A stretch of DNA of 32,000 nt from an uncultured Opitutales bacterium (GCA_934613415.1 CAKTSY010000003.1:1-32000); one strand, 5' to 3'. Shown: positions 17,790-31,845, numbered from the stretch's first letter. Notes: generated by a model from the sequence alone, not told the origin. Program-made: numbers and translations.

Positions 17790-18788
17790 CTACAGCAATT
17801 CGGCAATTTGAACCGCGTTAAGGGCTGCGCCCTTCCAAAGCTGGTCGCCCGTTACCCAGAAAGACAAACCGTTGTCGAAAGCAATATCTTTGCGGATTCT
17901 GCCTACTGCGCACTTTTCCCTCTTTTGCGAGAACAAGGGCATTGGATATTTGTTGTTCTTCGGGTCGTCCACAAGCTCTGCACCCGAAAATTCCGAAATA
18001 GCCTTGCGGGCAAGTTCTACATCTACGGGTTTTTCGAACTCGGCGTTAATTGCAACCGAGTGCGCCCTCATTACGGGAACGCGCACACATGTTGTAGAGC
18101 ATTTCAACGCGGGCATTTCCAAAATCTTGCGGCTTTCGTTTACCATTTTCATTTCCTCTTTGGTGTAGCCGGTATCCAAGAAAACGTCTACATGGGGAAG
18201 CGCGTTAAAGGCAATTTGGTAGGGATATACCTTAACTTCGGGCTTTTCGCCCTTTGCAAAGGCCTTTACCTGGTTTTCGAGCTCTTGCATTGCGGCAACG
18301 CCGGTGCCCGAAACCGCCTGATATGTAGCCGCAAAAAATCTTTTAAGCCCGAATGCCTTGTTTAGCGGGCACAGCGCCATAAGCGAAATTGCCGTTGTGC
18401 AATTTGGGTTGGCTATAATGTTCTTGTGGTTTTTAAGCGCGTGGGCGTTAACTTCGGGAACTATCAGGGGCACGTTTTCGTCCATTCTAAACGCCGAAGA
18501 ATTGTCTATTGCAACGCAGTTGCGCTTTGCGGCCTCGGGAACTAATGCCTTGGAAACGCTGCCGCCTGCGCTGAATATTGCTATGTCCAAATTTTCGAAG
18601 CTTTCGGGTTTTGCCTCCTGAACAGTAAATTTATTTCCGTCTTTTTCGATTGTTTTGCCCGCACTGCGAGCCGATGCCAAAAGCGTCAATTCGCTCATGG
18701 GAAAATTTCTGGCAAACAAAAGGTCAATAAGCTCTTGACCAACTGCGCCTGTTGCGCCAACAATTCCAACTCTATACTTCTTACTCAT
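17790..18788 (-). CDS. asd: aspartate-semialdehyde dehydrogenase
   Basis: 332 aa. The NAD(P)-binding motif is VGIVGATGAVGQELIDLL, the active-site Cys context is IANPNCTTAISLMAL, and the C-terminal segment is WVTGDQLWKGAALNAVQIAE. Confidence 0.93.
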   Translation of the reverse strand: MSKKYRVGIVGATGAVGQELIDLLFARNFPMSELTLLASARSAGKTIEKDGNKFTVQEAKPESFENLDIAIFSAGGSVSKALVPEAAKRNCVAIDNSSAFRMDENVPLIVPEVNAHALKNHKNIIANPNCTTAISLMALCPLNKAFGLKRFFAATYQAVSGTGVAAMQELENQVKAFAKGEKPEVKVYPYQIAFNALPHVDVFLDTGYTKEEMKMVNESRKILEMPALKCSTTCVRVPVMRAHSVAINAEFEKPVDVELARKAISEFSGAELVDDPKNNKYPMPLFSQKREKCAVGRIRKDIAFDNGLSFWVTGDQLWKGAALNAVQIAELL

Positions 18789-18792
18789 AACT

Positions 18793-19344
18793 ATGAAGCC
18801 GTTTATTGATGATTTTTATTCTTTTTGCGATTTCTTGAAAATAGAAAGAACCAAGTTTTGCATATTTGTGGAAATTGGCGAGCAAAAACTTTATCTTTTT
18901 GAAAACGGGGTTTTTAAGCTCGAGTTCAACGTTTCGACATCGCGCAAGCCCCCTTGCTGTGTAAAAGATTCTTTGGGAACTCCTTTGGGGCTGCATTTTA
19001 TAGACGGCAAAATAGGCGAAAACGAAGACTTAGACACTGTTTTTATTGCCAGAAAGCCCGTAGGCAAAATTTCGCAACAGCCCGACAACACGGTAAATAT
19101 GATAACCACGCGCATAATGCGCCTAAGGGGTTTGCAAGAGGGCGTAAACCGCGGCGACAATGTAGACACTTTTGAGCGCTTTGTTTACATTCACGGCACA
19201 AACCAAACCGAAAAAATCGGCACGCCAAACAGCCACGGCTGCGTGCTGCTTGCCCCCAACGACATGAAAAAACTATTCGACATTGTAGACGACAAAAGCC
19301 TTGTTTACATTTACATAGACAAACCAGAATTTGCGCGAAGTTAA
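18793..19344 (+). CDS. L,D-transpeptidase (YkuD) domain protein
   Basis: 183 aa. The YkuD catalytic signature is YIHGTNQTEKIGTPNSHGCVLL (His...Ser-His-Gly-Cys). The start at 18793 is only 4 nt from the divergent asd start, and no alternative ATG exists upstream of the domain. Confidence 0.75.
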   Translation: MKPFIDDFYSFCDFLKIERTKFCIFVEIGEQKLYLFENGVFKLEFNVSTSRKPPCCVKDSLGTPLGLHFIDGKIGENEDLDTVFIARKPVGKISQQPDNTVNMITTRIMRLRGLQEGVNRGDNVDTFERFVYIHGTNQTEKIGTPNSHGCVLLAPNDMKKLFDIVDDKSLVYIYIDKPEFARS

Positions 19345-19422
19345 ACGATGCTAAAAAACCGCTTTTATTGCTTTACACAAAAGGCAAAATGCGGAGAATG
19401 TAAGGCAAAAACAGACAATCCT

Positions 19423-20823
19423 ATGCCCGACAGCATTCTTATAGTAGACGACGAAAAACACACAAGAGACGGACTTAAAGCCGCCTTGTCGATAGACTAC
19501 GATGTTGCGGGGGCGGCCAATGTAGAGGAGGCAAAACGCCTTTTGCAGGCCGAAAAATTCGACTTGGTGCTTACCGATTTAAGAATGGGCACACAGTCGG
19601 GAATGAATCTTTTAGAGTATGTAAAAAATTCGCACCCTAAATGCCTCTGCATTATGATGACCGCCTACGGGACTATTGCGTCGGCGGTAGAGGCAATGCG
19701 CAAGGGGGCATGCGACTTTATAACAAAGCCCATAGATTTAGACACTTTAGACGCGATAATAAAAAAGGCTTTGGCCCAGCGCGAGAAAGAGGAAACACCC
19801 CTGCCCCAGCAAAACACGCAAGGCGCGCAGCCAACGCAACAAAAAAAGCAACCACAGCCGCAAACGCCCGACGAAAAATTTAAAATAATTTCGCAAAGCC
19901 CCGTTTTCGAAAAAGTTTTACAGGAAGCGAAAAAGGCCGCGGCTTCGAAAGCGACGATTTTGCTTACGGGCGAAACGGGAACGGGCAAAGAGTTGGTAGC
20001 CCACTACATACACAAAAACTCTCCTCGAAGCCAAAATCCCTTTGTGGTTGTGCACTGCTCGGCAATTCCGTCGACTTTGCTAGAATCGGAACTTTTCGGC
20101 TACGAAAAGGGAGCATTTACAGGAGCTGTTGCCCGCAAGATTGGCAAGTTTGAGGCGGCGAACAACGGAACGGTTTTCCTTGACGAAATAGGCGAAATAG
20201 ACGCAACTACGCAAGTAAAACTGCTGCGCTTTTTGGAGAGCAAAAGCTTTGAAAGAATAGGCAACACCGAAAGCATTACGGTAGACGCGCGCCTTGTTTG
20301 CGCGACAAACAAAAACCTTGCCGAGATGGTCGAAAACGGCGAATTTAGGCAGGATTTATTCTACAGGCTAAACGTCGTTCAAATTTGCCTGCCGCCGTTA
20401 AGAGAACGCCCCGAAGACATAGAACCTATGCTAAAATACTACATTTCGTATTTTGCAAAGGAAAACGGTTTGCCCGAGTTGGAGATATCCAAAGGCGCTT
20501 TGGACATTTTAAAGGCGTATGCGTGGCCAGGCAACATAAGAGAGCTTAGGAATTTTTGCGAAAACAAAGTTGTAATGCAAAGTTCCAACACCATTACCGA
20601 AAGCGATTTAGACGGCAGGTTTTCGCTTAGCGCGGGCGATTTTGCGTTGCATACAAACGTTTCCGAAAACGCAAACAGCCTTTCGAAACGCGACAACGAG
20701 CTTGCCCTCATAAAAAAAGCCCTAAAAGAAACGGGCAACAACAAGACAAAAGCTGCCGAACTTATGGGCATTTCGCGCAGAACGCTTCACCGCAAATTAA
20801 ACGAATTCGGGCTGGAGCAATAG
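19423..20823 (+). CDS. sigma-54-dependent response regulator (NtrC-type bacterial enhancer-binding protein)
   Basis: The REC domain has ILIVDDEKHTRDGL and DLVLTDLRMG. The AAA+ domain has Walker A GETGTGKE and the GAFTGA sigma-54 contact loop. The Fis-type HTH is NKTKAAELMGISRRTLHRKL. The start is set at ATG 19423 (MPDSILIVDDE); the track ORF starts 25 codons earlier. Confidence 0.9.
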   Translation: MPDSILIVDDEKHTRDGLKAALSIDYDVAGAANVEEAKRLLQAEKFDLVLTDLRMGTQSGMNLLEYVKNSHPKCLCIMMTAYGTIASAVEAMRKGACDFITKPIDLDTLDAIIKKALAQREKEETPLPQQNTQGAQPTQQKKQPQPQTPDEKFKIISQSPVFEKVLQEAKKAAASKATILLTGETGTGKELVAHYIHKNSPRSQNPFVVVHCSAIPSTLLESELFGYEKGAFTGAVARKIGKFEAANNGTVFLDEIGEIDATTQVKLLRFLESKSFERIGNTESITVDARLVCATNKNLAEMVENGEFRQDLFYRLNVVQICLPPLRERPEDIEPMLKYYISYFAKENGLPELEISKGALDILKAYAWPGNIRELRNFCENKVVMQSSNTITESDLDGRFSLSAGDFALHTNVSENANSLSKRDNELALIKKALKETGNNKTKAAELMGISRRTLHRKLNEFGLEQ

Positions 20824-21683: not shown

Positions 21684-21936
21684 TGCGCAAAATTTGCCGC
21701 TAGCAATATTTTTGCCGTAGCACTTTTCGTTAAAAAATTTGTCTACAAAACTTTTCACGGACGGATTTTGTGCCGAAAGTTCGGCAAATATGCGCCGCCA
21801 TTAAGCCCTTTTTTGCCTAAATATTTTTAATTAAAAGCCTTGTGGTTTTGTACGATTGCCAAACTACGGAACCAAATTCCGCAACAAAAAATGCGTCGCA
21901 CCGTGCGGCGCAAAAACACAAAAGAAAGGAAATATT

Positions 21937-22521
21937 ATGTTATTGGGAACAAGATACCCCACTTTGGCTTTTCACACCGGCGGCGCAGGCCAGTCCGACG
22001 ACGGAATACCGCCCCAACCATTCGAAACTTTTTGCTACGACAGCGCGCTGCTCGAGGCTAAGATAGAAAACTTCAACGTTGTGCCCTACACTTCGGTTTT
22101 GCCCAAGGAACTTTACGGAAACATTGTTCCCGCAGAAAAGGTTGCAAAAAACTTTAAGCACGGCGCAGTTTTAGAGGTTATTATTGCAGGCAACGGGGCA
22201 AGACTTACCGACCACAGGGCAATAGCAACGGGAGTTGGCATTTGCTGGGGCAAAGACGCCAAAGGCGAGCTTATAGGCGGCTGGGCTGCCGAATATGTGG
22301 AATATTTCGACACCTATATAGACGACGACATTGCCCGAACCCACTGCGAAATGTGGCTAAACAAATCGCTTAACCACGAGCTTGAAATACGCAACGTAAA
22401 AAAGCACAGCGAATTTCAAATATTCCACAACTTTATAAACATCGAAAAAAGCTTCGGCTACTGCCTTACGGCGTTGGGATTTTTGAACTTCGAATTTGCC
22501 GAACCCGTTAAACTGAAGTAG
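21937..22521 (+). CDS. pdaD: pyruvoyl-dependent arginine decarboxylase (PvlArgDC/AaxB family) proenzyme
   Basis: The start is set at ATG 21937, with AAAGGA 7 nt upstream, giving 194 aa. Counting from this start, [12 protein letters not shown] places Thr52-Ser53 exactly where chlamydial AaxB self-cleaves to form the pyruvoyl group. The size and the downstream segment [19 protein letters not shown] fit the family. Confidence 0.8.
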
Positions 22522-22533
22522 AAAGGCATAGAA

Positions 22534-24108
22534 ATGTCCGACCAAAATTCGCCGAACGACTCAGCCAAAAAACTTGGAACTTTGGGGCTTGCCGCCATTG
22601 TGGTAAGCTCGATGATTGGCGGGGGAATTTTCAGCCTTCCGCAAAATATGGCGGCCTCGGCGGGGTTGGCCGCTGTTTTAATTGCATGGGTTATTACGGG
22701 AGTGGGCGTATTTTTTATAGCCAACTCCTTTAAAACCCTTTCGTTTGTAAGGCCCGACCTTACCGCAGGCATTTATATGTACGGCAAGGAGGGATTCGGC
22801 AAATACGCGGGCTTTACGGTTGCCTGGGGCTACTGGCTTTGCCAGATTTTCGGCAACGTAGGGTACGCTATAATTACAATGGACGCTTTAAACTACTTTT
22901 TCCCCGGCAAGTTTGCAGGCGGCAACAACGCGCTTTCCATAATAATTGGCTCGCTGCTAATTTGGGTGTTCAACTTTGCAGTTTTAAAGGGCACAAAGCA
23001 GGCCTCGGCAATAAACATAATAGGAACCATTGGCAAACTTGTACCCATTTTTGTTTTCATTATTGCAATGGTTTTTGTGTTCAATTTCGATAAATTTTCG
23101 TTCGACGTTTTCGGCAACCTTACTACAAACGGCGAACACAATTTGGGAACTTTGCCCGCACAAATTAAAAGCACAATGCTTGTAACACTATGGGCGTTTA
23201 TAGGCATAGAGGGCGCGGTTGTAATGTCGGGGCGCGCAAAGAGCCAAAAGGACGTAGGCTATGCAACAATTCTGGGCTTTTCGGGCGGGCTTATTGTTTT
23301 TGTGCTGCTTTCGGTGCTGCCATACGGCTTTATGTCGCAGGCCGAACTTGCCGACATAGCAAACCCGTCTACAGCGGGCATTCTCGAAAAGGCCGTCGGC
23401 ACTTGGGGTGCATATTTAATGAACATAGGCCTTATAGTTGCGGTTTTGGCAAGCTGGCTTGCCTGGACTATGATTACCGCCGAAGTTCCGTTTGCCGCGG
23501 CAAACGACAGCACATTCCCCAAATTTTTTGCGGCGCAAAACGCAAAGGGCGCGCCCAGCGCATCGCTTTGGACTACAAGCCTTACAATGCAGGCCGCAAT
23601 TTTGTTTGCCGCATTTTCAAGCAACGCATGGAACACAATGCTTAGCATTACAAGCGTTATGGTGCTTTTTCCCTATTTAACAAGTATGTTGTTTTTGTGC
23701 AAATGCGCGTTTAGCGAATCGATTTGCAGGGGAACAAACGCGCGCTTTTGCAAAAAGGCGGCTTTGCTTTCGGGCGTAGTGGGCGCAATATATACGCTGT
23801 GGCTTATATATGCCGCAGGCATAGACTATGTTTTGCTTTCGGTAATATTTTTAACATTGGGCATTCCCGTTTATATGTGGGCACAAAAAGAAAGAAATTT
23901 GCCCGCCTTTAACAGAACCGAACGCTTGGCGGCAATAGTACTTGTTGTCGTTTCGATTGCGGCAATAGTGCTAATGCTCGACAATAAACTGCCCGCATTC
24001 GAAAACACGGCACAACAAACAACCCAGCAAACCACAAAGCCCGAACAAAAGCATTCAAAGCTAATAAAGCGGCACGGGCACAGCCTTCCCATAAAACAAA
24101 ACCAATAG
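22534..24108 (+). CDS. APC superfamily basic amino acid/polyamine antiporter (ArcD-like); predicted arginine:agmatine exchanger
   Basis: 524 aa with about 12-13 TM segments. The N-terminal signature is LAAIVVSSMIGGGIFSLPQNMAASAG. It starts 12 nt after the decarboxylase stop. The C-terminal ~45 aa form a Q/T/K-rich tail (AQQTTQQTTKPEQKH). Confidence 0.8.
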   Translation: MSDQNSPNDSAKKLGTLGLAAIVVSSMIGGGIFSLPQNMAASAGLAAVLIAWVITGVGVFFIANSFKTLSFVRPDLTAGIYMYGKEGFGKYAGFTVAWGYWLCQIFGNVGYAIITMDALNYFFPGKFAGGNNALSIIIGSLLIWVFNFAVLKGTKQASAINIIGTIGKLVPIFVFIIAMVFVFNFDKFSFDVFGNLTTNGEHNLGTLPAQIKSTMLVTLWAFIGIEGAVVMSGRAKSQKDVGYATILGFSGGLIVFVLLSVLPYGFMSQAELADIANPSTAGILEKAVGTWGAYLMNIGLIVAVLASWLAWTMITAEVPFAAANDSTFPKFFAAQNAKGAPSASLWTTSLTMQAAILFAAFSSNAWNTMLSITSVMVLFPYLTSMLFLCKCAFSESICRGTNARFCKKAALLSGVVGAIYTLWLIYAAGIDYVLLSVIFLTLGIPVYMWAQKERNLPAFNRTERLAAIVLVVVSIAAIVLMLDNKLPAFENTAQQTTQQTTKPEQKHSKLIKRHGHSLPIKQNQ

Positions 24109-24140
24109 CACGCAATTTTTGCGAAAAAACAAAATTTGCA

Positions 24141-24170
24141 AACCGCACTTTTTTAGGTGCGGTTTTTTTG
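24141..24170 (+). terminator. intrinsic terminator of the decarboxylase-antiporter operon
   Basis: Stem ACCGCAC (24142-24148) pairs with GTGCGGT (24158-24164), followed by T-run. It falls inside the 5' extension of track ORF 24157..25494, which argues against that extension. Confidence 0.75.
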
Positions 24171-24269
24171 CGTTTGTAAAAAAGCAATATGCAAACCTAA
24201 GCCCGAAAAATTTTCCCTTCGTAAAATATTCCAAATAAAAAAATTCTCGCAAAAAGCTCAAACCGTTTT

Positions 24270-24298
24270 TTGCGCACTTAAAATATGTGCGCTATTGT
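24270..24298 (+). promoter_or_regulatory. candidate promoter and palindromic operator immediately upstream of the portal gene
   Basis: TTGCGC (24270-24275), 17 nt, then TATTGT (24293-24298). The inverted repeat GCGCAC (24272-24277) / GTGCGC (24287-24292) spans the -35 and spacer. An alternative -10, TAAAAT, lies at 24279-24284. The portal ATG is at 24307. Confidence 0.35.
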
Positions 24299-24306
24299 TG
24301 GCGACG

Positions 24307-25494
24307 ATGAACGCGAAAAATATATCCTCGCTTACGGGAAGCTGTAATTTAAGAAACGGCTTTAACCCCATAAGAAATTTACGACCCGAAACACTGGCAA
24401 ATGCGCTAGATTCCTTTTCGTTCGGAATACTCGCACCCGCCGCAAAAATATTTGGCGCAATACTAGAAAGAGACGACCTTATAAGCGCACTTGCACTTAA
24501 AAGGAAAAAGGCGGTATCGCGCCTAGACTACGAAATTGTAAAAAAAGATTTTTCCGACAAAGCGCAGCAACACGCAAAAATCTTGACCGACTTTTACAGC
24601 ACAGTCAAAGCAAAGAGCGTTGTAGACGCAAACTTAACGGGATCATTAAGGCTGCTTATTTCGCAGATGATGGACGCCGTTGCAATGAAATATAGCGTGC
24701 ATAAAATAGAATATAAGTGCGTTAACGGCAAAGTATGCGCAAAGTTTACGCAATATCCCCTTTGGCTTTTCGAAAACAAAAGCGGACGCTTAAGACTGCT
24801 TAAAAACCCAAACGACATTTCCGCAGACGGTACGCCCCTAAACGGAAACGAATGGATGACAACCTGCGGCGACGGGCTTATGACAGCGTCGTCGATAGCG
24901 TATATATTCAAACAGCTGCCTCTAAAAGACTGGCTTGTTTATTGCGAAAGAAACGGTATGCCTGGCATAAAGGCAAAAACCGACGCGTATCCGGGGTCTC
25001 CGCAATGGGAGGCTGCCTGCAAGGCGGTAAGCGACTTTGGCGCGGAATTTAGCGCGGTGCTTTCGCAGGGGACCGACATAGACGCCATAGATATTTCAAC
25101 CTCGGGCGAGCTGCCCTACAAGGCGCTAATAGAGCGCATAGACAAAACTTTGTGCTCGCTTTGGCGCGGGGCAGACTTGTCGACAATGTCTAACAAAGAC
25201 TCTTCGGGGGCAAGTCTGCAATGGTACGAAAGCTCGCTTTTAGAGGAAGACGACGTTTCGAACATAAACGAAACACTGAATGAAAATGTAGACAAAACCG
25301 TTATTCGCTTGGCTTTGGGCGACGATGAACCCCTTGCAAAATTCAAGCTTAAGCTGCCCGACTACGAAATGCACAAAGACGAGCTGGACATAATAGAGCG
25401 TCTTGTAAAGTTGGGGCTTAAACCCGACACGGCAAAATTGGCAAAGATGTTTTCGTTCCCCTGCAAAAAAGACGGCGACAATGAAGAAGTTTAA
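24307..25494 (+). CDS. phage portal protein, Mu gp29 / DUF935-like
   Basis: The start is set at ATG 24307 (MNAKNISS...), downstream of the terminator. The N-terminal pattern LRPETLANALDSFSFGILAPAAKIFGAILERDDLISALALKRKKAVSRLDYEIV follows the DUF935 pattern (L..il..a..G........me.rD..i.....kRk.av..l.w.i). At 395 aa it is short for the family. Confidence 0.7.
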   Translation: MNAKNISSLTGSCNLRNGFNPIRNLRPETLANALDSFSFGILAPAAKIFGAILERDDLISALALKRKKAVSRLDYEIVKKDFSDKAQQHAKILTDFYSTVKAKSVVDANLTGSLRLLISQMMDAVAMKYSVHKIEYKCVNGKVCAKFTQYPLWLFENKSGRLRLLKNPNDISADGTPLNGNEWMTTCGDGLMTASSIAYIFKQLPLKDWLVYCERNGMPGIKAKTDAYPGSPQWEAACKAVSDFGAEFSAVLSQGTDIDAIDISTSGELPYKALIERIDKTLCSLWRGADLSTMSNKDSSGASLQWYESSLLEEDDVSNINETLNENVDKTVIRLALGDDEPLAKFKLKLPDYEMHKDELDIIERLVKLGLKPDTAKLAKMFSFPCKKDGDNEEV

Positions 25495-26296
25495 CAAAAC
25501 GCTGGTTCAGCTGCTATGCCCTTTCGGTAACTGGAAACACACTAAGGGAATGCAAATTGTAGACAAAATTTCGGGCGAAAAACTGGTTAAAAATTTTGGC
25601 GGAATTTTCAGGGCAAAAATTCCCGTATACATTGGCCACCCCGACGAAAACCCAAAAACCGCGCGGGCTGCAAAAGCAGTCGGGCAAATAGACAAACTTT
25701 TTTTGTGCGAAAACTCAATTGCCGCAATTGTGCGCTACGAAGAAAGCGTCTACAAAAAAATCGTTTCGGGCGAAATTCGGGCAATGTCGCCGCGCTGGCA
25801 AATGGAGCGCGTAAACGCCGAAAATTTTAGACCCGTAAAACTGGTTTCGGTGGGGCTTACAAACAACCCGAATATTCCCGAAAGCGGAAAGCTTTTATGC
25901 CCCGAATTATCGGGCAAAAACCCCGCCGTTTTTTCGCTGGTAGAAAAGTGCATAAACAATGCCGAAATTTCGCTAAACACGGCAAAAAAGTGCGCGGCAA
26001 AAAGCCGCAAAATTTTGGCGTTGCAAAGCGAGCAAACGGGCAAAGCCGCAACCAAAGTTTTGGCAAAGGCGGTAAGCGAAGGCGCAATTAGCGCAAAAGA
26101 ATGCGGCAAATGGCGCGAACTGCTTAGAACGAACTTTGCTAAAACCAAAAGGCAAATTGCAAAAAAATCAGTTCGCACCTCGCAGCTTAGCGCGTCGGAA
26201 ATTGTGCGCTTGGCAAAGGAGAAAATGCTTGGGCAATCGCTTGCCTGGGAAAAGGCGTACGATGCCGTAAAAAGCGAATACGGCGTAAAAATTTAA
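25481..26296 (+). CDS. Mu gpI-like prohead protease with a C-terminal scaffold-like region
   Basis: It overlaps the portal stop by 14 nt. Features match the Mu-like prophage I protein pattern: VQLLCPFGNW..., PVYIGHPDEN, AAKAVGQIDKLF, GEIRAMSPRW, LVSVGLTNNPNIP. The helical, Lys/Ala-rich C-terminal third (LALQSEQTGKAATKVLAKAV...) resembles the nested gpZ scaffold arrangement. Confidence 0.7.
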   Translation: MKKFNKTLVQLLCPFGNWKHTKGMQIVDKISGEKLVKNFGGIFRAKIPVYIGHPDENPKTARAAKAVGQIDKLFLCENSIAAIVRYEESVYKKIVSGEIRAMSPRWQMERVNAENFRPVKLVSVGLTNNPNIPESGKLLCPELSGKNPAVFSLVEKCINNAEISLNTAKKCAAKSRKILALQSEQTGKAATKVLAKAVSEGAISAKECGKWRELLRTNFAKTKRQIAKKSVRTSQLSASEIVRLAKEKMLGQSLAWEKAYDAVKSEYGVKI

Positions 26297-26304
26297 CCTC
26301 CCAA

Positions 26305-27024
26305 ATGGGACAAACAAAGGAACAAAAAACAATGAAACTAAAAAAGTTATTAGCCGAAACGGCAAAAGCGTTGTCGGCAAAAATTAAACAGTGCGAGTGT
26401 TTTGCCAACATAGCCGAAGGCACGCATTCGGGCTACATAACAATGACTGCCGCGGCAAACATTGCAAAAAGCAATTTGCTGTTAAGGCAAAATTCGCAAG
26501 GCACGGTTAAAGTTGCAATGAAAGGCGAAATGCCCATAGGCACTTCGTGCGATTGCGCAGAGCAAGGCGAAAGCCTTGGCGTAATATTGGCTGGCGTTGC
26601 AGAACAAACCGTGCTTTGCGTGGCGGCAAGCGCCGTTGCGGCCGGCGATACCGTATACGGAGCCGATTCCGGAAAAGTTTCGGCAAGTGCTGCCGCCAAC
26701 GCCTACAAGATTGGCGTGGCGTTGAATGCCGCCCCAATAGACGGCATTGTAGAAGTTTTGCCGCAGGGCTTCGGCTCTTTGGCGTATCAGACATGTGCCG
26801 CCGGCGTTTATGTATGGGAAGCAGCCACTGCAACCGAAAGCATAGAAATGCCGTCTTTGAAGGAAGGCGATATTGTAGTTGCCTCGCTATATGCAGTCGG
26901 CGCAAGCGAAAAGTCGGTTATAGCTTCAATAGACGCCGAAAGCAAAAAAATCACGTTTAAGTTGGACGCAAACGGAACCGCAAACACCACAAAAGTATGC
27001 TGGATTCTTATGCGCAACGCCTAA
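26305..27024 (+). CDS. putative head decoration/cement protein (DUF2190-like)
   Basis: It sits between the protease and the capsid gene. The Gly/Ala/Val-rich segment GDTVYGADSGKVSASAAANAYKIGVALNAAPIDGIVEVLPQG matches the DUF2190 pattern by eye. The start could instead be ATG 26332 (MKLKKLL). Confidence 0.4.
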   Translation: MGQTKEQKTMKLKKLLAETAKALSAKIKQCECFANIAEGTHSGYITMTAAANIAKSNLLLRQNSQGTVKVAMKGEMPIGTSCDCAEQGESLGVILAGVAEQTVLCVAASAVAAGDTVYGADSGKVSASAAANAYKIGVALNAAPIDGIVEVLPQGFGSLAYQTCAAGVYVWEAATATESIEMPSLKEGDIVVASLYAVGASEKSVIASIDAESKKITFKLDANGTANTTKVCWILMRNA

Positions 27025-27043
27025 TTGAAAGGAAGAAAATTAT

Positions 27044-27958
27044 ATGAGCGAAAATACAATAACACCGGCAAACCAAAGCAGATTTGAACAGGCCAACTAT
27101 TCGGCGGCTTTAACCGCCTATTCGGTAGGCTACAAAGATTCCGAAAATATTTCGGCATTGCTCGACTTTATTGCGCCTCCCATTCCGGTTGGCAGAAGGT
27201 TTGAATTTAAGCGCGCAAACAATGCGGAAGCGTTTTATTCGGAAAGCGACGATGTGCGCTCGATAGGCGCGGAATTTAAGCGCGTGCAATATTCGGGCGA
27301 AAGCATTAACGAAAAAACCCTAAACAAAGGACTTACCATTAGGGTAGACAACGACGAAGTTGTAGGTGACAAGTGGCAGGAAAGATATACTGCAATGCTT
27401 ATACAGCGCCTGTTGCGCAACGAACTTCGCAGGGCAATTGCGGCGTTGGACGCAATTAGCACTTCGGCTGACAAGGTTTGGGATTCGTCGGCAAACCCCG
27501 ACGAAGACTTGCGAAACGCCCTAATGCTTAGCGCAAACGAAAGCGGGGTACGCCCCAACAGAATGCTTTTCGGCGAAAGCGCGTGGGATATGAGAGCAAG
27601 CTGCCTTGAAAAGCAAAGCACATCTGGGGCGTTTAAATCGGGCTCGATGACGCCGAACGAACTCTCCCAAAAGCTGATGTTAGACGGCTGCAAAATTGCG
27701 AGCGCGCGCTACCAAACGGCAAGCGGCAAAACCCAGATTGGCTCTTTGAATGTATACGCATTCTTTGCCCAAAACGGAATTTCGAAAGACGAAGCTTCGA
27801 ACCTAAAGCGTTTCTACACTCCAACCGAAGACGGCACTATGTTCAGGGTATACTGCCAGGAATACGCAAAATATACCGACATTACGGTTGAGCACTACTC
27901 CAGCATTGTAGCCTGCAGCAACTTGGGAGTACGAAAGCTTTGCGTTAGCGCACAATAA
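27044..27958 (+). CDS. major capsid protein (presumed HK97 fold; lambda gpE-like rather than Mu gpT-like by eye)
   Basis: 304 aa with AAAGGAAG 8 nt upstream of the ATG. The call rests on its position after the protease and decoration genes, its size, and the strong stem-loop that follows. The segment LLDFIAPPIPVGRRFEFKR...FKRVQYSGESINEKTLNKGLTIRVDNDEV is reminiscent of the capsid-E family. The assignment is positional plus weak similarity. Confidence 0.55.
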   Translation: MSENTITPANQSRFEQANYSAALTAYSVGYKDSENISALLDFIAPPIPVGRRFEFKRANNAEAFYSESDDVRSIGAEFKRVQYSGESINEKTLNKGLTIRVDNDEVVGDKWQERYTAMLIQRLLRNELRRAIAALDAISTSADKVWDSSANPDEDLRNALMLSANESGVRPNRMLFGESAWDMRASCLEKQSTSGAFKSGSMTPNELSQKLMLDGCKIASARYQTASGKTQIGSLNVYAFFAQNGISKDEASNLKRFYTPTEDGTMFRVYCQEYAKYTDITVEHYSSIVACSNLGVRKLCVSAQ

Positions 27959-27988
27959 CAAACAATAACAACTAACCACAAAGGCAAC

Positions 27989-28014
27989 GGCGGGCGGGTA
28001 CATACCCGTCTGCC
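27989..28014 (+). terminator. GC-rich stem-loop after the capsid gene (attenuator or RNA-stabilising hairpin)
   Basis: An 11-bp stem pairs GGCGGGCGGGT (27989-27999) with ACCCGTCTGCC (28004-28014), including two G:U pairs, around an ACAT loop. GCCCC-A7-T4 follows. There is no immediate U-run, so it is probably only partially terminating. Confidence 0.45.
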
Positions 28015-28033
28015 GCCCCAAAAAAATTTTAAT

Positions 28034-28483
28034 ATGAAATGGAATAGAATTTATGCCGCCGACCTTGAAAGCGCGCTAAACAAAAACCAGCTGGAAATAT
28101 TAAAGTCGCAGTCGCTAGCCTCGGCAGGCCGCTCTATTTGCGACGAAATAATTTCGCTTGTATGCGCCGAAATTAGGGCGGCTGTTGCAAACGCAAATAG
28201 ATATATAGACGAAGACCACCTTAAAATACCCAACGAATTAAAGCTTGCAGCAATAAGGCTTTGCGTTGAAGCCCTGCAAGCAAGGCTTTCGGGAATGGAG
28301 CTTACCGCCCAGCAAATAAAACTTGCCGACATAGCAAGGCAGACAATCGAAAAGGTTGCCCTGGGCAAATTCCTTGTTTCCTCGCCCGACATTCCAATAC
28401 AAACCACTTTCGAAAAAAAGTCGGTTAAACATTTTGCGAGAAGCGAAAAGACAGCATCGTTTGACGCATTAAAGGGAATATGA
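28034..28483 (+). CDS. head-tail connector/adaptor, Mu gp36 (DUF1320)-like
   Basis: 149 aa. The pattern IYAADLESAL...LEILKS...AEIRAAV...RY...LKIPNELKLAAIRLCVEALQARL...IEKVALGKFLV parallels the DUF1320 consensus (Y...dl...l, P..l, a...L..va.Gk..L). This is a by-eye match only. Confidence 0.45.
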   Translation: MKWNRIYAADLESALNKNQLEILKSQSLASAGRSICDEIISLVCAEIRAAVANANRYIDEDHLKIPNELKLAAIRLCVEALQARLSGMELTAQQIKLADIARQTIEKVALGKFLVSSPDIPIQTTFEKKSVKHFARSEKTASFDALKGI

Positions 28484-28484
28484 T

Positions 28485-28919
28485 ATGGTTTCTACTCTTG
28501 AATATCTGCAAAACTCGGTCTTTGAAATTTTAAGAAGCTCGCCACAGCTTGAAAGGGTTGGCATATTTAAAAAGAGCGTGTTTTTCGATGGAAGCTACAA
28601 GTTCCCTGCTGCGGGAATGGGGGTTTTTGTAAGTTTGCCACGACCGCTAAAAGCCTCGAAATATTCGGTTGGCCCTGCATTTTCAAAAGTGGTTTTCTGC
28701 ATAGAAATTGTGGTTGAAAAACACTCGTTTTCGCAGGCGTATTCGCCGCTATTTATAGCCGAACTTGCCACCAAAAAGCTGCACAAAGCGCAGCTGCCGC
28801 TTGCCTGCGGCTACGGTAAAGTATACCTAAGCGACGAAAACCCCTACGGCGAATACAAAATTTCGGAACAAACATTCGCAATAAAATTGAACTTCGAAAC
28901 ACAGGCTCTTTTGCAATGA
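28485..28919 (+). CDS. putative neck/head-completion protein (possibly Mu gp37 / DUF3168-type)
   Basis: 144 aa, starting 1 nt after the previous stop. The call is based on position and the N-terminal pattern LEYLQNSVFEILRSSPQLERVGIF...FPAAGMGVFVSLP. Support is weak. Confidence 0.3.
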   Translation: MVSTLEYLQNSVFEILRSSPQLERVGIFKKSVFFDGSYKFPAAGMGVFVSLPRPLKASKYSVGPAFSKVVFCIEIVVEKHSFSQAYSPLFIAELATKKLHKAQLPLACGYGKVYLSDENPYGEYKISEQTFAIKLNFETQALLQ

Positions 28920-29320
28920 AAATAATTTTAAACGACACTCCGCTAAACCCCTTCGGGCAAATACCGCAAAGTTTTATTGTAAAAAACACGCGCATTGCAA
29001 AGTTTGCAAACGTAATAGACGCCGAAAACCCGCTTGTAAAAAACGGCAAAAATTCGGCGTTAAAAATAGAGTTTTCGATTTGCACAAATTTTGAAAGCGA
29101 AAGCTCCGCCCAATGTTTCGGGGTAAAGCACTGCATATTTTTGTCTAAAATAGGCAGCGCAACGCTAAAAATGGAGTTTGCCGACGAATGCGAAAGCCCG
29201 CTGTTTTCCGCCGAATTTTCGGGGGCGGCGCTTAGCGGCTACGAGTTTGAAATATCGGGGGTACAAACAAAATTTAAATACAACTTTATAGCCCAAAAAA
29301 TGGAGCAAAAAAATGGATAG
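28916..29320 (+). CDS. hypothetical phage structural protein
   Basis: 134 aa with a 4-nt ATGA overlap with the upstream gene. It looks beta-rich. No family recognised. Confidence 0.45.
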   Translation: MKIILNDTPLNPFGQIPQSFIVKNTRIAKFANVIDAENPLVKNGKNSALKIEFSICTNFESESSAQCFGVKHCIFLSKIGSATLKMEFADECESPLFSAEFSGAALSGYEFEISGVQTKFKYNFIAQKMEQKNG

Positions 29321-29450
29321 CGAAAACATAACAGCCCAGCTTGAAAACCTGCAAAACCAAATAGACGACCTAAACGCACAGCTTGAAAGGCTAGACAACC
29401 TGCTCGGACAAATAGAATCGCAAATGGACAACCTTAAAGAGGAAGTTTAA
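29313..29450 (+). CDS. small coiled-coil protein (45 aa)
   Basis: Hand-translated, below the ORF-track cut-off: MDSENITAQLENLQNQIDDLNAQLERLDNLLGQIESQMDNLKEEV. It has a heptad-like Leu/Ile spacing. Its ATG overlaps the upstream stop (ATGGATAG), and its stop is 1 nt before the next ATG, so it fits the coupling pattern of the cassette. Confidence 0.5.
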   Translation: MDSENITAQLENLQNQIDDLNAQLERLDNLLGQIESQMDNLKEEV

Positions 29451-29451
29451 A

Positions 29452-31161
29452 ATGGCGTATTTTTTAAAAGTTAACGACACTACAAAAACGCTTGCCGACT
29501 GGAAAATTACAAAGGCGGTTTTAACCCTAAAAAGTCTGGATTGCGACGAACTTTGCATACACTCGCAAGCCGAATTTGCCTACAATGCCGCAGTGCAGCT
29601 TTTTTCCGACAACCTTTGCGTTTTTTCGGGAAAGGTGCGAACCCTCCCCCAATACGAAGCCGCCCAAACAAAATATAGGGAATATAAAATATTGGGGCCG
29701 TGGAACGAGCTATGCGAAATTGTATACCAGCAAAAATGGAAATGTGCAAAGCAGTCGAGCAACGACGACACGCAGGCCGAAGTTTTCGATACCTATAAAA
29801 GCCGCGTAATTCTCGGCGAAAACGACGCCGAAGAGCGCATAGACATTGGAACGCAAATAGAAAACATTGTGGAATTTGCAAAAGCTGCAGGCGCAAATAT
29901 TCAAAGCGGAAACATTGCCGCAAGCTACCCGATGTTGTACGACGAAACCTGCGACATAAATTGCGCGCAGGCCGTAAAAAGAACGCTTAAATGGCTACCC
30001 GACGCAATATCGTTTTTCGACTACTCTACTACGCCGCCAAAGCTTAACATTGTGCGGCGAAACGCGCTCGACAAAAAGGAAATAAATTTGAATTCCGATT
30101 CGGTTAAAGACTACAAGGTTTCGCCGCGCAACGATTTGCTTATTTCGGGAGTGGAGATCAAATACGAAAAAACGCAAAGCATTGGCAGCGAAAGCTACAG
30201 CACTTTGCAATGCGACAAATACCCGCCAAATTTCGACAGCAGAACGCCAAAGTCGCTTGTTATGACTGTTGAGCTTGACGGCTACAAAGGCATTTTGCAG
30301 GAGCACACAATACAAACCGAAGAGATTAAGCCCAACGACACCGATTGGTGGGTATCGAAAATTCCGTCGCTTTCGGAAGCCTACAACCTTAAAATTTTGG
30401 AAAGCTCGCGTGATTTTCCAGACTATAAATACGCGCTTACCAAGGGAACAATTCCCGACTGGGCAAATATTGAAAGTAAAGTAGACACAATTTGCGCGTA
30501 TGTTTCGTACACGACAACAAGCCATATTTGCGCAAGGCAAAAAATTTCGATAAGGCTTAGGGTTACAAAAACAAAAAGCCGCAAGTTTTCGCGGCTAGCA
30601 ACTTCTCGCAGCGACGAACCCGTGCCCGAAGGCTTGGCGCAGTCGCTATATACGGGGCTTGGCACGTTGCAATACGATTCGCAATTTTGCATATACAACG
30701 CACAAGCGCACAACTATGCAGGCAAAGCCCTTAATTTAAAAGGGGCAAACCCGCTTTTCGAAAATATGAACAGCGCAATTGTAGAATGCAAGCAAGACCT
30801 TTTCGAAAACACACTAACAATAAAGGCAGGCAGCCCCGAGCATCTTTATCCGGCAAAAATAGCGGAACTATTCAGAATAAACAAGGCAAGGAAAACAACG
30901 TCTAGTTTTTCCACAAAAACAAAGGCCCAATCGCCGCTTAAGGGGAAAATTTCGCTAAACGCGCAAAGTGTAAAGGAAGTTCCAACGCAAATTAACACTG
31001 TTATGCGCTCTATTACACTTTCGGTAGACGCAACAAAACCCAAAATTGTTTTGGATTCCTCGAACATTCCCGATGGGATAACCCTTGGCGTACAACGGGT
31101 TTTAGTTTGCGAAAACGGCCAGCCTGCCTACGCCTATACAATTTTAAGCAACACCGAATAA
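29452..31161 (+). CDS. large hypothetical virion protein; the N-terminus is weakly reminiscent of gpD/gp27/VgrG-type hub proteins
   Basis: 569 aa. YFLKVNDTTKTLADWKITKAVLTLKSLDCDELCI, FSGKVRTLPQYEAAQTKYREYKILGPWNELCEI and IDIGTQIENIVEFAKAAGANI resemble the order of conserved hub blocks (F.G.V....Y.Y.l.PW...L, then ...i...a...G). This is a low-confidence inference. Confidence 0.45.
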   Translation: MAYFLKVNDTTKTLADWKITKAVLTLKSLDCDELCIHSQAEFAYNAAVQLFSDNLCVFSGKVRTLPQYEAAQTKYREYKILGPWNELCEIVYQQKWKCAKQSSNDDTQAEVFDTYKSRVILGENDAEERIDIGTQIENIVEFAKAAGANIQSGNIAASYPMLYDETCDINCAQAVKRTLKWLPDAISFFDYSTTPPKLNIVRRNALDKKEINLNSDSVKDYKVSPRNDLLISGVEIKYEKTQSIGSESYSTLQCDKYPPNFDSRTPKSLVMTVELDGYKGILQEHTIQTEEIKPNDTDWWVSKIPSLSEAYNLKILESSRDFPDYKYALTKGTIPDWANIESKVDTICAYVSYTTTSHICARQKISIRLRVTKTKSRKFSRLATSRSDEPVPEGLAQSLYTGLGTLQYDSQFCIYNAQAHNYAGKALNLKGANPLFENMNSAIVECKQDLFENTLTIKAGSPEHLYPAKIAELFRINKARKTTSSFSTKTKAQSPLKGKISLNAQSVKEVPTQINTVMRSITLSVDATKPKIVLDSSNIPDGITLGVQRVLVCENGQPAYAYTILSNTE

Positions 31162-31163
31162 AA

Positions 31164-31808
31164 ATGCCATTTATAGTAACTCACCCATACAACGGCTACC
31201 CTTTTGTTTTAGACCCGTTCGAAAGCGCGCCCTCCGAAACCGTAGGCTTTGCCGAAAGCTCCGACGGCGTTTCGGTTGTAGCCGAAGAGTTTACATTTTC
31301 GCTTGCAAATGCAATGTCGCTTTTTTGGCTTTCGCAAATAAGGTCGGTTAAAGCCGCCATACGCGCAAGTTTTACCTACGACAACAACTCCTCCGACGGC
31401 ATAAACGCAAGTTTTACATGTCCAAACATAAAATTTGCCTCGTCGGAATACAACGTTATACCGCCAGCCGCAAACAGGGTCGCTTTCGACAAGTCTCAAT
31501 ATCTCATACACGCAACGGGCAACAATTTCGATTTTAAAATAAGTATGCCCAAATATGTATCGGCCACTTCGCAAAAATACTTTATGTTCGGGCATGCCGC
31601 AGCAAATAGGAATAACGAAAAATTTTTGCTGCTTATAGGCTACAAGCTAAGCTATGAAAGCTACGAACATATAGAAAGAGACACCATACAAATTTTGGGG
31701 CAAAGCGTGCCCGTTATTCTTATTCACGAAGGCGCAAAAAATATATTCACAAACTTTTCGATGTCGGGCTCGTTTTCCACCGACTTAAACTGCACGCTTA
31801 TTCCGTAA
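31164..31808 (+). CDS. hypothetical protein, last gene of the cassette
   Basis: The start is set at ATG 31164 (MPFIVTHPYNGY), 2 nt after the previous stop. The track ORF from 31107 would overlap the 569-aa gene by 55 nt. The protein is 214 aa and no family is recognised. Confidence 0.45.
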   Translation: MPFIVTHPYNGYPFVLDPFESAPSETVGFAESSDGVSVVAEEFTFSLANAMSLFWLSQIRSVKAAIRASFTYDNNSSDGINASFTCPNIKFASSEYNVIPPAANRVAFDKSQYLIHATGNNFDFKISMPKYVSATSQKYFMFGHAAANRNNEKFLLLIGYKLSYESYEHIERDTIQILGQSVPVILIHEGAKNIFTNFSMSGSFSTDLNCTLIP

Positions 31809-31813
31809 ATAAG

Positions 31814-31845
31814 AAAAATCCCGTTAAAATAAACGGGATTTTTTA
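31814..31845. terminator. bidirectional intrinsic terminator closing the cassette
   Basis: Stem ATCCCGTT (31818-31825) pairs with AACGGGAT (31832-31839). A5 precedes it and T6 follows. It lies between the convergent cassette and the TolC-like gene. Confidence 0.75.

Follow-up and report, generated by a model that had tools for sequence, protein, structure and literature searches.

We analysed a 32,000-nucleotide stretch of DNA (hereafter the window) from an uncultured gut bacterium of the Opitutales, Verrucomicrobiota (GCA_934613415.1, CAKTSY010000003.1:1-32000) that contains ten intact, tightly packed open reading frames (ORFs) on the + strand between positions 24307 and 31808. This cassette is probably the head-plus-stub-tail operon of a domesticated particle system that derives from a Mu-like phage, is of gene transfer agent (GTA)-like or PBSX type, and forms a fixed part of Opitutales/Puniceicoccales chromosomes. 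With the packaging genes of relatives residing at a separate locus, the cassette appears to be half of a GTA-like system that has not been described before.

The ORF table and translations agreed exactly with the ten + strand ORFs reported in an earlier first-pass annotation of this DNA, including the junctions from g1 to g10 (-14, +8, +19, +75, +1, -4, -8, +1 and +2 nt). The genes are as follows.

24307-25494, + strand: g1, portal, 395 aa (PF06074 Portal_Mu, E = 4.8e-52; phrog_113, 1.9e-26)
25481-26296, + strand: g2, head maturation protease with a scaffold-like C-terminus, 271 aa (Mu-like_Pro PF10123, E = 5.8e-7; phrog_328, 3.6e-9)
26305-27024, + strand: g3, capsid decoration/cement protein, 239 aa (PF09956 Phage_cement_2, E = 2.4e-7)
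27044-27958, + strand: g4, major capsid protein (MCP), 304 aa (phrog_1005 major head protein, 7.9e-10)
28034-28483, + strand: g5, head-tail adaptor, Mu gp36/DUF1320-like, 149 aa (phrog_195 and PDB profile match)
28485-28919, + strand: g6, neck-position protein, 144 aa (kept in 66 of 81 loci by hidden Markov model (HMM))
28916-29320, + strand: g7, predicted tail-tube-fold protein, 134 aa (AlphaFold2 model, pLDDT 83.7)
29313-29450, + strand: g8, coiled-coil peptide, 45 aa (coiled-coil matches only in Pfam and PHROG)
29452-31161, + strand: g9, predicted tail/baseplate hub of gp27/Mu gp44/VgrG-type fold, 569 aa (AlphaFold2 model, pLDDT 78.3, pTM 0.69)
31164-31808, + strand: g10, fast-evolving distal protein, 214 aa (dN/dS 0.11-0.14)

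The head genes are of Mu type, with a DUF935 portal (PF06074), a gpI protease (PF10123) and a gpT-like capsid protein (phrog_1005). With a core of the Mu gp29 type, the portal is some 130 aa shorter than those of phage-like relatives in IMG/VR (523-545 aa). In g2, the Mu-like_Pro match lies at positions 4-127 and corresponds to the N-terminal part of Mu gpI, and the C-terminus matches phrog_3894 and phrog_2976. One source names a g4 homologue 'Phage major capsid protein E'. For the g5 family, phrog_195 ('head-tail adaptor') was detected in 4 of 34 orthologues (best E = 9.8e-7), and the family profile gave a weak match to the DUF1320 chain 8rka_B in the PDB (E = 0.095). These results bear out the first-pass labels of portal, protease, cement protein, capsid protein and gp36-like connector; the gp37-like label proposed for g6 found no supporting match.

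Neither the single g6 sequence nor its orthologue alignments matched anything in Pfam, PHROG or the PDB, and by position g6 is a candidate head-closure or stopper protein. We modelled g7 from an alignment of 14 sequences (with 13 library representatives) and g9 from one of 13 (with 12 word-search matches). Foldseek matched the g7 model to the tube proteins of the antifeeding prophage (AFP) and the Photorhabdus virulence cassette (PVC), the tail tube of phage 812, Hcp1 and, further down the list, chain 6tba_50 of the RcGTA virion (E 2e-4 to 2e-2, probability 0.99-1.0). The g9 model matched the hubs of AlgoCIS, the Anabaena contractile injection system (CIS), diffocin, PVC and AFP, together with the MuSo2 43-kDa tail protein, Mu gp44 (1wru, 9ki1_G) and VgrG, all within E 9e-12 to 1e-6. 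The models thus predict that g7 is a tail-tube/Hcp-fold protein and that g9 has a baseplate/tail-hub fold. Between these two genes lies g8, which has a counterpart at the same position in 35 loci, an ORF of 45-90 aa (121 aa in one case), and a dN/dS of 0.04-0.24; it is possibly a vestigial tail-length ruler or an assembly factor. The length of such a ruler is proportional to that of the tail. From this proportionality and the position of the gene we infer that g8 may stand in for a tape measure and keep the tube to a length of one or two rings. For g10, neither Pfam nor PHROG gave a match, and hhalign showed only a weak link (56% probability, E = 1e-4) to the family found at position 10 in other species; the position-10 families of other species were linked to one another at 95-97%. 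By position, g10 is a candidate receptor-binding or tip protein.

Because the cassette encodes the g5 adaptor and the predicted g7 tube and g9 hub folds, it appears to specify a head, a neck and a minimal tube-and-hub tail, rather than a head only. We surveyed the surroundings with Pfam on 30 window proteins, precomputed Pfam annotation for the next 6 kb downstream, and tblastn for the large terminase subunit TerL. No terminase, integrase/transposase, sheath, tape-measure or lysis gene was found in this span, which agrees with what the first-pass annotation had stated for the cassette; its further claim that a tube and tail are absent does not stand beside the predicted g7 and g9 folds. Pfam likewise detected no replication or repressor domain in the window, in the 6 kb downstream or within the +/-5-10 kb inspected around the packaging loci of relatives.

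Some relatives and phage-like contigs have an additional gene of 281-315 aa in a sheath-like position between g6 and g7 (L104 8945-9790; L105, L131 and L132, +281 aa; L108 16721-17668; L116 13484-14431). It is absent from the window's clade and has no PHROG match. Non-gut relatives encode a large fibre-like protein of 500-1000 aa, C12, downstream of the neck genes (L042, L051, L059, L066, L071, L073 and others). In some loci it lies between tube g7 and hub g9, and in L042, L051, L059 and L066 no tube or hub gene was detected. In L066, C12 includes a Laminin_G_3/ConA-lectin domain and weakly matches a phage-tail repeat. C12 is missing from the gut clade, which has the 45-53-aa g8 instead.

We profiled the distribution of the cassette across the order. 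The MCP has 941 homologues, with identities of 49-98% across Opitutales/Puniceicoccales. When one genome per species was scanned, MCP relatives were found in 134 species-representative genomes, all from Opitutales/Puniceicoccales. Locus comparisons were made on the 80 of these that were retained and inspected, which come from 80 different assemblies with one cassette per genome. The genome scan recovered isolates as carriers (Puniceicoccaceae Marseille-Q1082, Intestinicryptomonas porci and two Cerasicoccus), and Ruficoccus amylovorans was among the MCP protein matches. Gene content was compared by clustering the ORFs of the loci, followed by HMM searches over all six-frame ORFs. About 35 gut-associated species have all ten genes in the same order and at near-equal lengths (portal ~395 aa, protease 235-294, cement protein 225-315, MCP ~305, g5 ~149, g6 ~141, g7 124-136, g8 45-53, g9 564-613 and g10 194-230), and this set is intact at MCP identities down to ~62%.

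In all cases the cassette is flanked by housekeeping genes, which differ between lineages. Many species have galK/epimerase/UDP-sugar pyrophosphorylase-like genes upstream (C23/C19/C13/C10) and purH downstream (C14), as read from translations, and Pfam identified hemF/hemE or PGM beside the cassettes of non-gut relatives and housekeeping genes beside those of L048 and L071. The Cerasicoccus and L071 clusters were considered as complete prophages and set aside, being flanked by hemF/hemE and PGM. An identical MCP occurs on 23 metagenome contigs, the longest of 357 kb; the eight loci displayed have the same cassette and, on contigs of sufficient length, the same neighbours on either side. The cassette is therefore neither an assembly break nor the end of a prophage, two possibilities that the first-pass annotation had named as refuting its reading; no complete prophage was found in the relatives.

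Purifying selection acts on all ten genes. Between the window and a congener (L010) with identical gene lengths, dN/dS (the ratio of non-synonymous to synonymous substitution rates) was 0.06-0.30 at a dS of 0.49-0.77, and neighbouring chromosomal genes gave 0.02-0.30 at a dS of 0.21-0.65. Pairwise divergence of the MCP, portal and hub correlated with that of adjacent housekeeping genes (Pearson 0.5-0.9) across 10-15 species with the same insertion context. Purifying selection together with co-divergence is as expected of a functional host locus that is passed on vertically. Synteny in relatives and dN/dS had been named in the first-pass annotation as a check on domestication, and the shared insertion context and purifying selection favour it.

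The packaging genes were found in relatives of the window species. In non-gut Puniceicoccales, a four-gene packaging operon adjoins the portal on its upstream side. TerL (Terminase_6N and 6C) stands immediately before the portal; ahead of TerL are p3, which is gp27-like, and a further two or three small proteins, namely p0 (with multiple transmembrane (TM) segments), p1 (TM and coiled coil) and p2. The Mu gp27 model PF11985 matches p3 in 8 of 22 members (best E = 3.3e-6), covering only positions 51-167 of the 173-position model, and the N-terminus is variable. In at least ten gut species, the packaging operon is inverted or stands alone: in L026, L027, L030 and L093 it has the inverted orientation and is found a few kb upstream of the portal, and in L089, L092, L133-136, L146, L156, L159 and L161 it lies alone between unrelated housekeeping genes. 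The small proteins of the stand-alone operon are orthologous to p1, p2 and p3 according to phmmer. Three genomes have the two halves on different contigs: the I. porci isolate JALBUT01 (head cassette on contig 1, L044; packaging operon on contig 10, L092), CASDUP01 (contig 51, L028; contig 1, L135) and CALXLX01 (contig 47, L038; contig 39, L159). TerL is 55-77% identical across the order and is as conserved as the MCP. The cassette had been described as self-contained, a view that probably needs revision, as the evolutionary unit includes the packaging operon of relatives. This operon is contiguous with the portal, inverted beside it or distant, in line with another first-pass proposal, a domesticated, GTA-like module with other parts elsewhere. 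By analogy with these relatives, the packaging operon of the window species is presumably elsewhere in its genome. A 491-aa ORF in the window (19348-20823) was a TerL candidate by size and AT skew; it encodes a sigma-54 response regulator, and tblastn with 24 TerL orthologues gave no match.

We also noted several features of the packaging loci. In one metagenome-assembled genome (MAG), L065, a p3-TerL pair (18575-20235) shares the strand of the capsid gene and lies ~8 kb downstream of it, a further state of rearrangement. A gene for an HU-type DNA-binding protein follows TerL in most gut-clade packaging loci (L089, L093, L133-135, L146, L156, L159, L161) and may be a member of the system or mere conserved synteny. 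A PF06439 (3-keto-disaccharide hydrolase) gene divergently precedes the operon in most of the gut-clade loci examined. Four TerL matches (P0174, P0187, P0195 and P0215) have 327-434 aa with only 73-77% query coverage and may be truncated genes or contig-end artefacts.

Two non-coding elements accompany the head operon.

24250-24298, + strand: promoter-like element upstream of g1, identified by reading the sequence
27988-28015, + strand: GC-rich stem-loop of 12 bp after the capsid gene (minimum free energy -24.7 kcal/mol, z -4.4)

The promoter-like element consists of two direct CAAA-type repeats (CAAAAAG...CAAACCG), followed by the -35-like TTGCGC (24270-24275), a 17-nt spacer and the -10-like TATTGT (24293-24298), with the ATG 8 nt further. 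It is a diverged version of a motif that is better conserved elsewhere in the gut clade. In at least 22 gut-clade species, CAAAGT-N-CAAAGTAAATTTGCG is found ~45 nt 5' of the portal, with GATATWA 16-18 nt after it and the ATG another 6-12 nt on. This motif, described as tandem CAAAGT repeats, TTTGCS and GATATWA, precedes the portal in L011-L045, and the same motif lies 5' of p1 in the packaging operons of L089, L093, L133, L135, L136, L146 and L156. It is present before the packaging operon in most gut species examined, with L092 as the weakest case, and both copies occur in one genome in L026, L027 and L093. The short distance from the -10-like box to the ATG suggests that the head-operon mRNA is leaderless or has a very short leader. 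An inverted repeat in the spacer of the window copy (GCGCAC-N9-GTGCGC) was considered as an operator and rejected, as it is not kept in L009 or L010.

None of 200 shuffles folded as well as the hairpin after the MCP gene. A comparable GC-rich stem-loop of 10-14 bp directly follows the MCP stop codon in nearly all of the 24 species loci displayed (L009-L032). The sequences of these hairpins are unrelated among species; only position and structure are kept, as would be expected if the structure served to adjust the expression of head genes relative to tail genes. We interpret it as probably an intra-operon attenuator or an mRNA-stabilising hairpin.

The chromosomal element was also compared with phages. 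IMG/VR contains 30 related contigs, five of which are fragments of the cassette itself (L103-L105, L131, L132). The others are 30-43 kb long, with MCPs 36-55% identical to that of the window, portals of the full length given above and longer protease-scaffolds, and they look like true Mu-like phages. One of them, L116, has a 269-aa gene without annotation at the position of Mu F; several carry one more gene, of ~310 aa, between g6 and g7, and large tail genes are present in several. The full-length portal, longer protease and extra genes of these phage-like relatives suggest that the chromosomal element is a reduced derivative. Among sequenced phage genomes, nothing close to the MCP was found, the only match being a weak one to a Vibrio phage. 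The cassette resembles Mu in its gene order and in its gp29/DUF935 portal, gpI protease-scaffold, gpT-like capsid protein, gp36-like adaptor and predicted gp44-like hub, and its relatives have a gp27/gp28-like terminase. It differs from Mu in lacking transposase A/B, the repressor, gp30 (Mu F), the sheath, tape measure, baseplate wedge, fibres and lysis genes, in its shortened portal and protease, and in being immobile and split. By clustering or Pfam, neither transposase A/B, repressor and gp30 genes nor genes for a contractile or long tail or for lysis were found in the window or the 80 related loci.

Three features of GTAs were found in this system: phage-like structural and packaging genes in the host chromosome (the latter as the TerL operon of relatives); vertical inheritance with purifying selection across the host clade; and, by Pfam in the +/-5-10 kb inspected, an absence of genes for self-replication, integration/excision or self-transfer. 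GTAs are further defined by particles that take up essentially random host DNA, in amounts too small to hold the genes encoding them, and by the transfer of markers between cells. With RcGTA, the agent of Rhodobacter capsulatus (Alphaproteobacteria; in part after PMC11841831), the cassette shares its organisation as a chromosomal, phage-derived head-tail cluster of 8-15 kb without replication or integration genes, its single-copy, vertical inheritance under purifying selection across an order-level clade with parts at other loci, and, through its relatives, a T4-type TerL (Pfam Terminase_6). However, no sequence homology to RcGTA was seen, the ancestor here appears Mu-like (Portal_Mu, gpI protease, gp27/gp28-like terminase), and the host phylum is Verrucomicrobiota. 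The cassette also lacks the tape-measure, distal-tail, megatron and peptidase genes, its predicted tail being a tube-fold protein, a 45-aa peptide and a hub. The function of RcGTA is experimentally established, whereas the cassette is known from its sequence.

A review of GTAs lists only RcGTA-like agents, BaGTA, VSH-1, Dd1 and VTA (PMC11841831). These are, as we propose for the present system, independent domestications of tailed phages into host-controlled particles, and VSH-1 of Brachyspira hyodysenteriae also has a 'divided genome', to quote a title cited there (PMC11841831). They differ from the cassette in gene families and hosts, and it was their particles or transfer activity that led to their discovery. 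In known GTAs, the putative small terminases are without a DNA-binding domain (PMC11841831); in the relatives of the cassette, p3 aligns with the Mu gp27 model over the partial span given above.

We propose the following mechanism for a GTA-like particle. The dedicated promoter common to both operons would switch them on together. The second operon would provide a headful TerL of the Mu gp28 kind, a small terminase resembling gp27 and two small proteins, and g1-g4 would build a portal-containing, protease-matured, cement-decorated HK97-type capsid, with the post-MCP hairpin probably raising the stoichiometry of head to tail. TerL would fill the capsid with DNA, after which g5 and g6 would close the portal. 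The g7 tube, g8 coiled coil and g9 hub would then form a tail one or two rings long with g10 at its tip. As replication, transposition and integration genes are lacking and the system is split over two loci, self-propagation should be impossible, so that the DNA packaged in such particles, released and transferred, would most likely be that of the host.

Several points weigh against a GTA-like particle. A literature search found no report of particles, packaged DNA or transfer for any member, and no GTA report for Verrucomicrobiota. Lysis genes and a regulator were not identified. No function could be assigned to g6, g8 and g10, for which searches of Pfam, of PHROGs and, with profiles from orthologue alignments, of the PDB yielded no usable match, and the tail interpretation depends on two AlphaFold models from shallow alignments (13-14 sequences). 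Moreover, the packaging operon of the window's own lineage was not found: by tetranucleotide signature, loci of that lineage have r >=0.957, and every TerL locus retrieved had r <=0.86 (about 12 examined, a small sample of the 120 listed TerL clusters).

The same structural evidence would fit a killer or defence particle, that is, a PBSX-like defective phage or 'headed bacteriocin' that kills or blocks competitors or absorbs phages, and in which packaged DNA is incidental. The predicted g9 fold is shared with the hubs and spikes that puncture cells in contractile injection systems and tailocins, and both g10 and the fibre-like C12 show the fast evolution seen in receptor-binding proteins during arms races. 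However, we consider such a particle unlikely. The window's clade has no sheath or contractile machinery, and Pfam detected no toxin or lysin domain in g9 or g10. TerL and the small-terminase-like protein are conserved (55-77% identity), which argues that DNA packaging itself is under selection. Tailocins and extracellular contractile injection systems are built of sheath, tube and baseplate without capsid, portal or terminase; the cassette has a capsid and a portal and no sheath, and shares with them only the predicted tube and hub folds.

The failure to find TerL in the window or the 6 kb downstream, and the fact that none of the TerL loci examined belongs to the window's lineage, could also mean that this lineage has lost the packaging operon and makes DNA-free capsid-like particles, for instance with protein or RNA cargo or as decoys. 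We find this loss improbable. The operon is intact in every other gut-clade species examined; portal, adaptor and hub are under purifying selection as strong as in relatives; and the search took in only the small sample of clusters mentioned above. The first-pass annotation had offered a particle with non-DNA cargo as one alternative, and it is disfavoured more generally because TerL co-evolves with the cassette.

A phage satellite with its own capsid and other functions supplied by a helper phage, which the first-pass annotation had also raised, is very improbable. A capsid-forming set without replication or lysis genes superficially resembles the capsid-forming phage-inducible chromosomal islands (cf-PICIs), which are likewise compact head and connector sets that do not encode a full virion, and some cassette fragments are listed as viral contigs in IMG/VR. 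However, cf-PICIs are integrase-bearing mobile islands induced by helper phages. The cassette lacks both an integrase and a replication module, its inheritance is vertical, and neither locus has an att-like boundary, primase/rep gene or regulator beside it. A helper-responsive regulator and a mobile or variable presence, as in satellites, were not found. Instead, the locus is single-copy, fixed in position and co-diverges with its housekeeping neighbours, and its split into two loci would be intolerable for a mobile island.

Finally, an inert prophage remnant that has not yet decayed is hardly tenable, even though most phage functions are missing and phage-like relatives have a longer portal and protease: with all ten ORFs intact in ~35 species at MCP identities down to ~62%, dN/dS of 0.06-0.30, and a conserved promoter motif and post-MCP hairpin, this reading is effectively refuted, and the first-pass judgement that the cassette is not a decaying remnant is upheld.

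The cassette adjoins ordinary chromosome on both sides, and is framed by two terminators.

24140-24165: intrinsic terminator of the upstream amino-acid permease gene, preceding the portal
31814-31843, strand not assigned: bidirectional intrinsic terminator with a 12-bp stem between an A-run and a T-run, common to g10 and the convergent OEP/TolC gene

Both terminators, the chromosomal permease upstream and the convergent TolC-like gene downstream had been predicted in the first-pass annotation and were recovered here. The region it had delimited, 24141-31845, does contain the cassette; its start needs correction, as 24141 falls within the permease terminator, outside the cassette, and the portal ATG is at 24307. 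The convergent outer-membrane-factor (OEP/TolC) gene adjoins the 3' end of the cassette and is followed by an RND efflux operon. Upstream, Pfam annotation of the window proteins revealed a BNR sialidase-like protein, MFS, FeoAB, two beta-helix proteins, asd and YkuD, as well as the sigma-54 response regulator, a GDSL lipase, a pyruvoyl arginine decarboxylase and the permease. The arginine decarboxylase and permease pair (21856-24108) is absent from the closely related MAG L009 (compared with L009 1-2300), where the portal almost directly follows the GDSL gene, an indel polymorphism at the upstream border of the cassette. The two adjacent beta-helix proteins (12739-15123 and 15238-17628, - strand; ~795 aa) have the same right-handed beta-helix domain in the same position and are probably tandem paralogues.

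Few GTA lineages have been shown experimentally (PMC11841831), and a candidate in Verrucomicrobiota, conserved across an order, would add a new phylum that includes members of the human and animal gut microbiota. How widespread GTAs really are is a question asked in the same review (PMC11841831). If true, our interpretation would provide an example of a GTA that arose from a Mu-like phage and has only a radically reduced tail. It is quite possible, and we propose it tentatively, that the system is the sixth independently domesticated GTA lineage and the first in the Planctomycetes-Verrucomicrobia-Chlamydiae superphylum, with a Mu-like origin, a two-operon regulon under one promoter type and the shortest tail of any tube-and-hub virion (one or two rings, with a 45-residue coiled-coil ruler), moving host DNA among gut and marine Opitutales. 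The cassette fragments catalogued as viral in IMG/VR can inflate virus and prophage counts for Opitutales. Carriers are available in culture (Intestinicryptomonas porci, Puniceicoccaceae Marseille-Q1082, Cerasicoccus spp. and Ruficoccus amylovorans), which makes the proposal directly testable, and the cassette is a credible candidate for a GTA-like lineage that would be new for the phylum.

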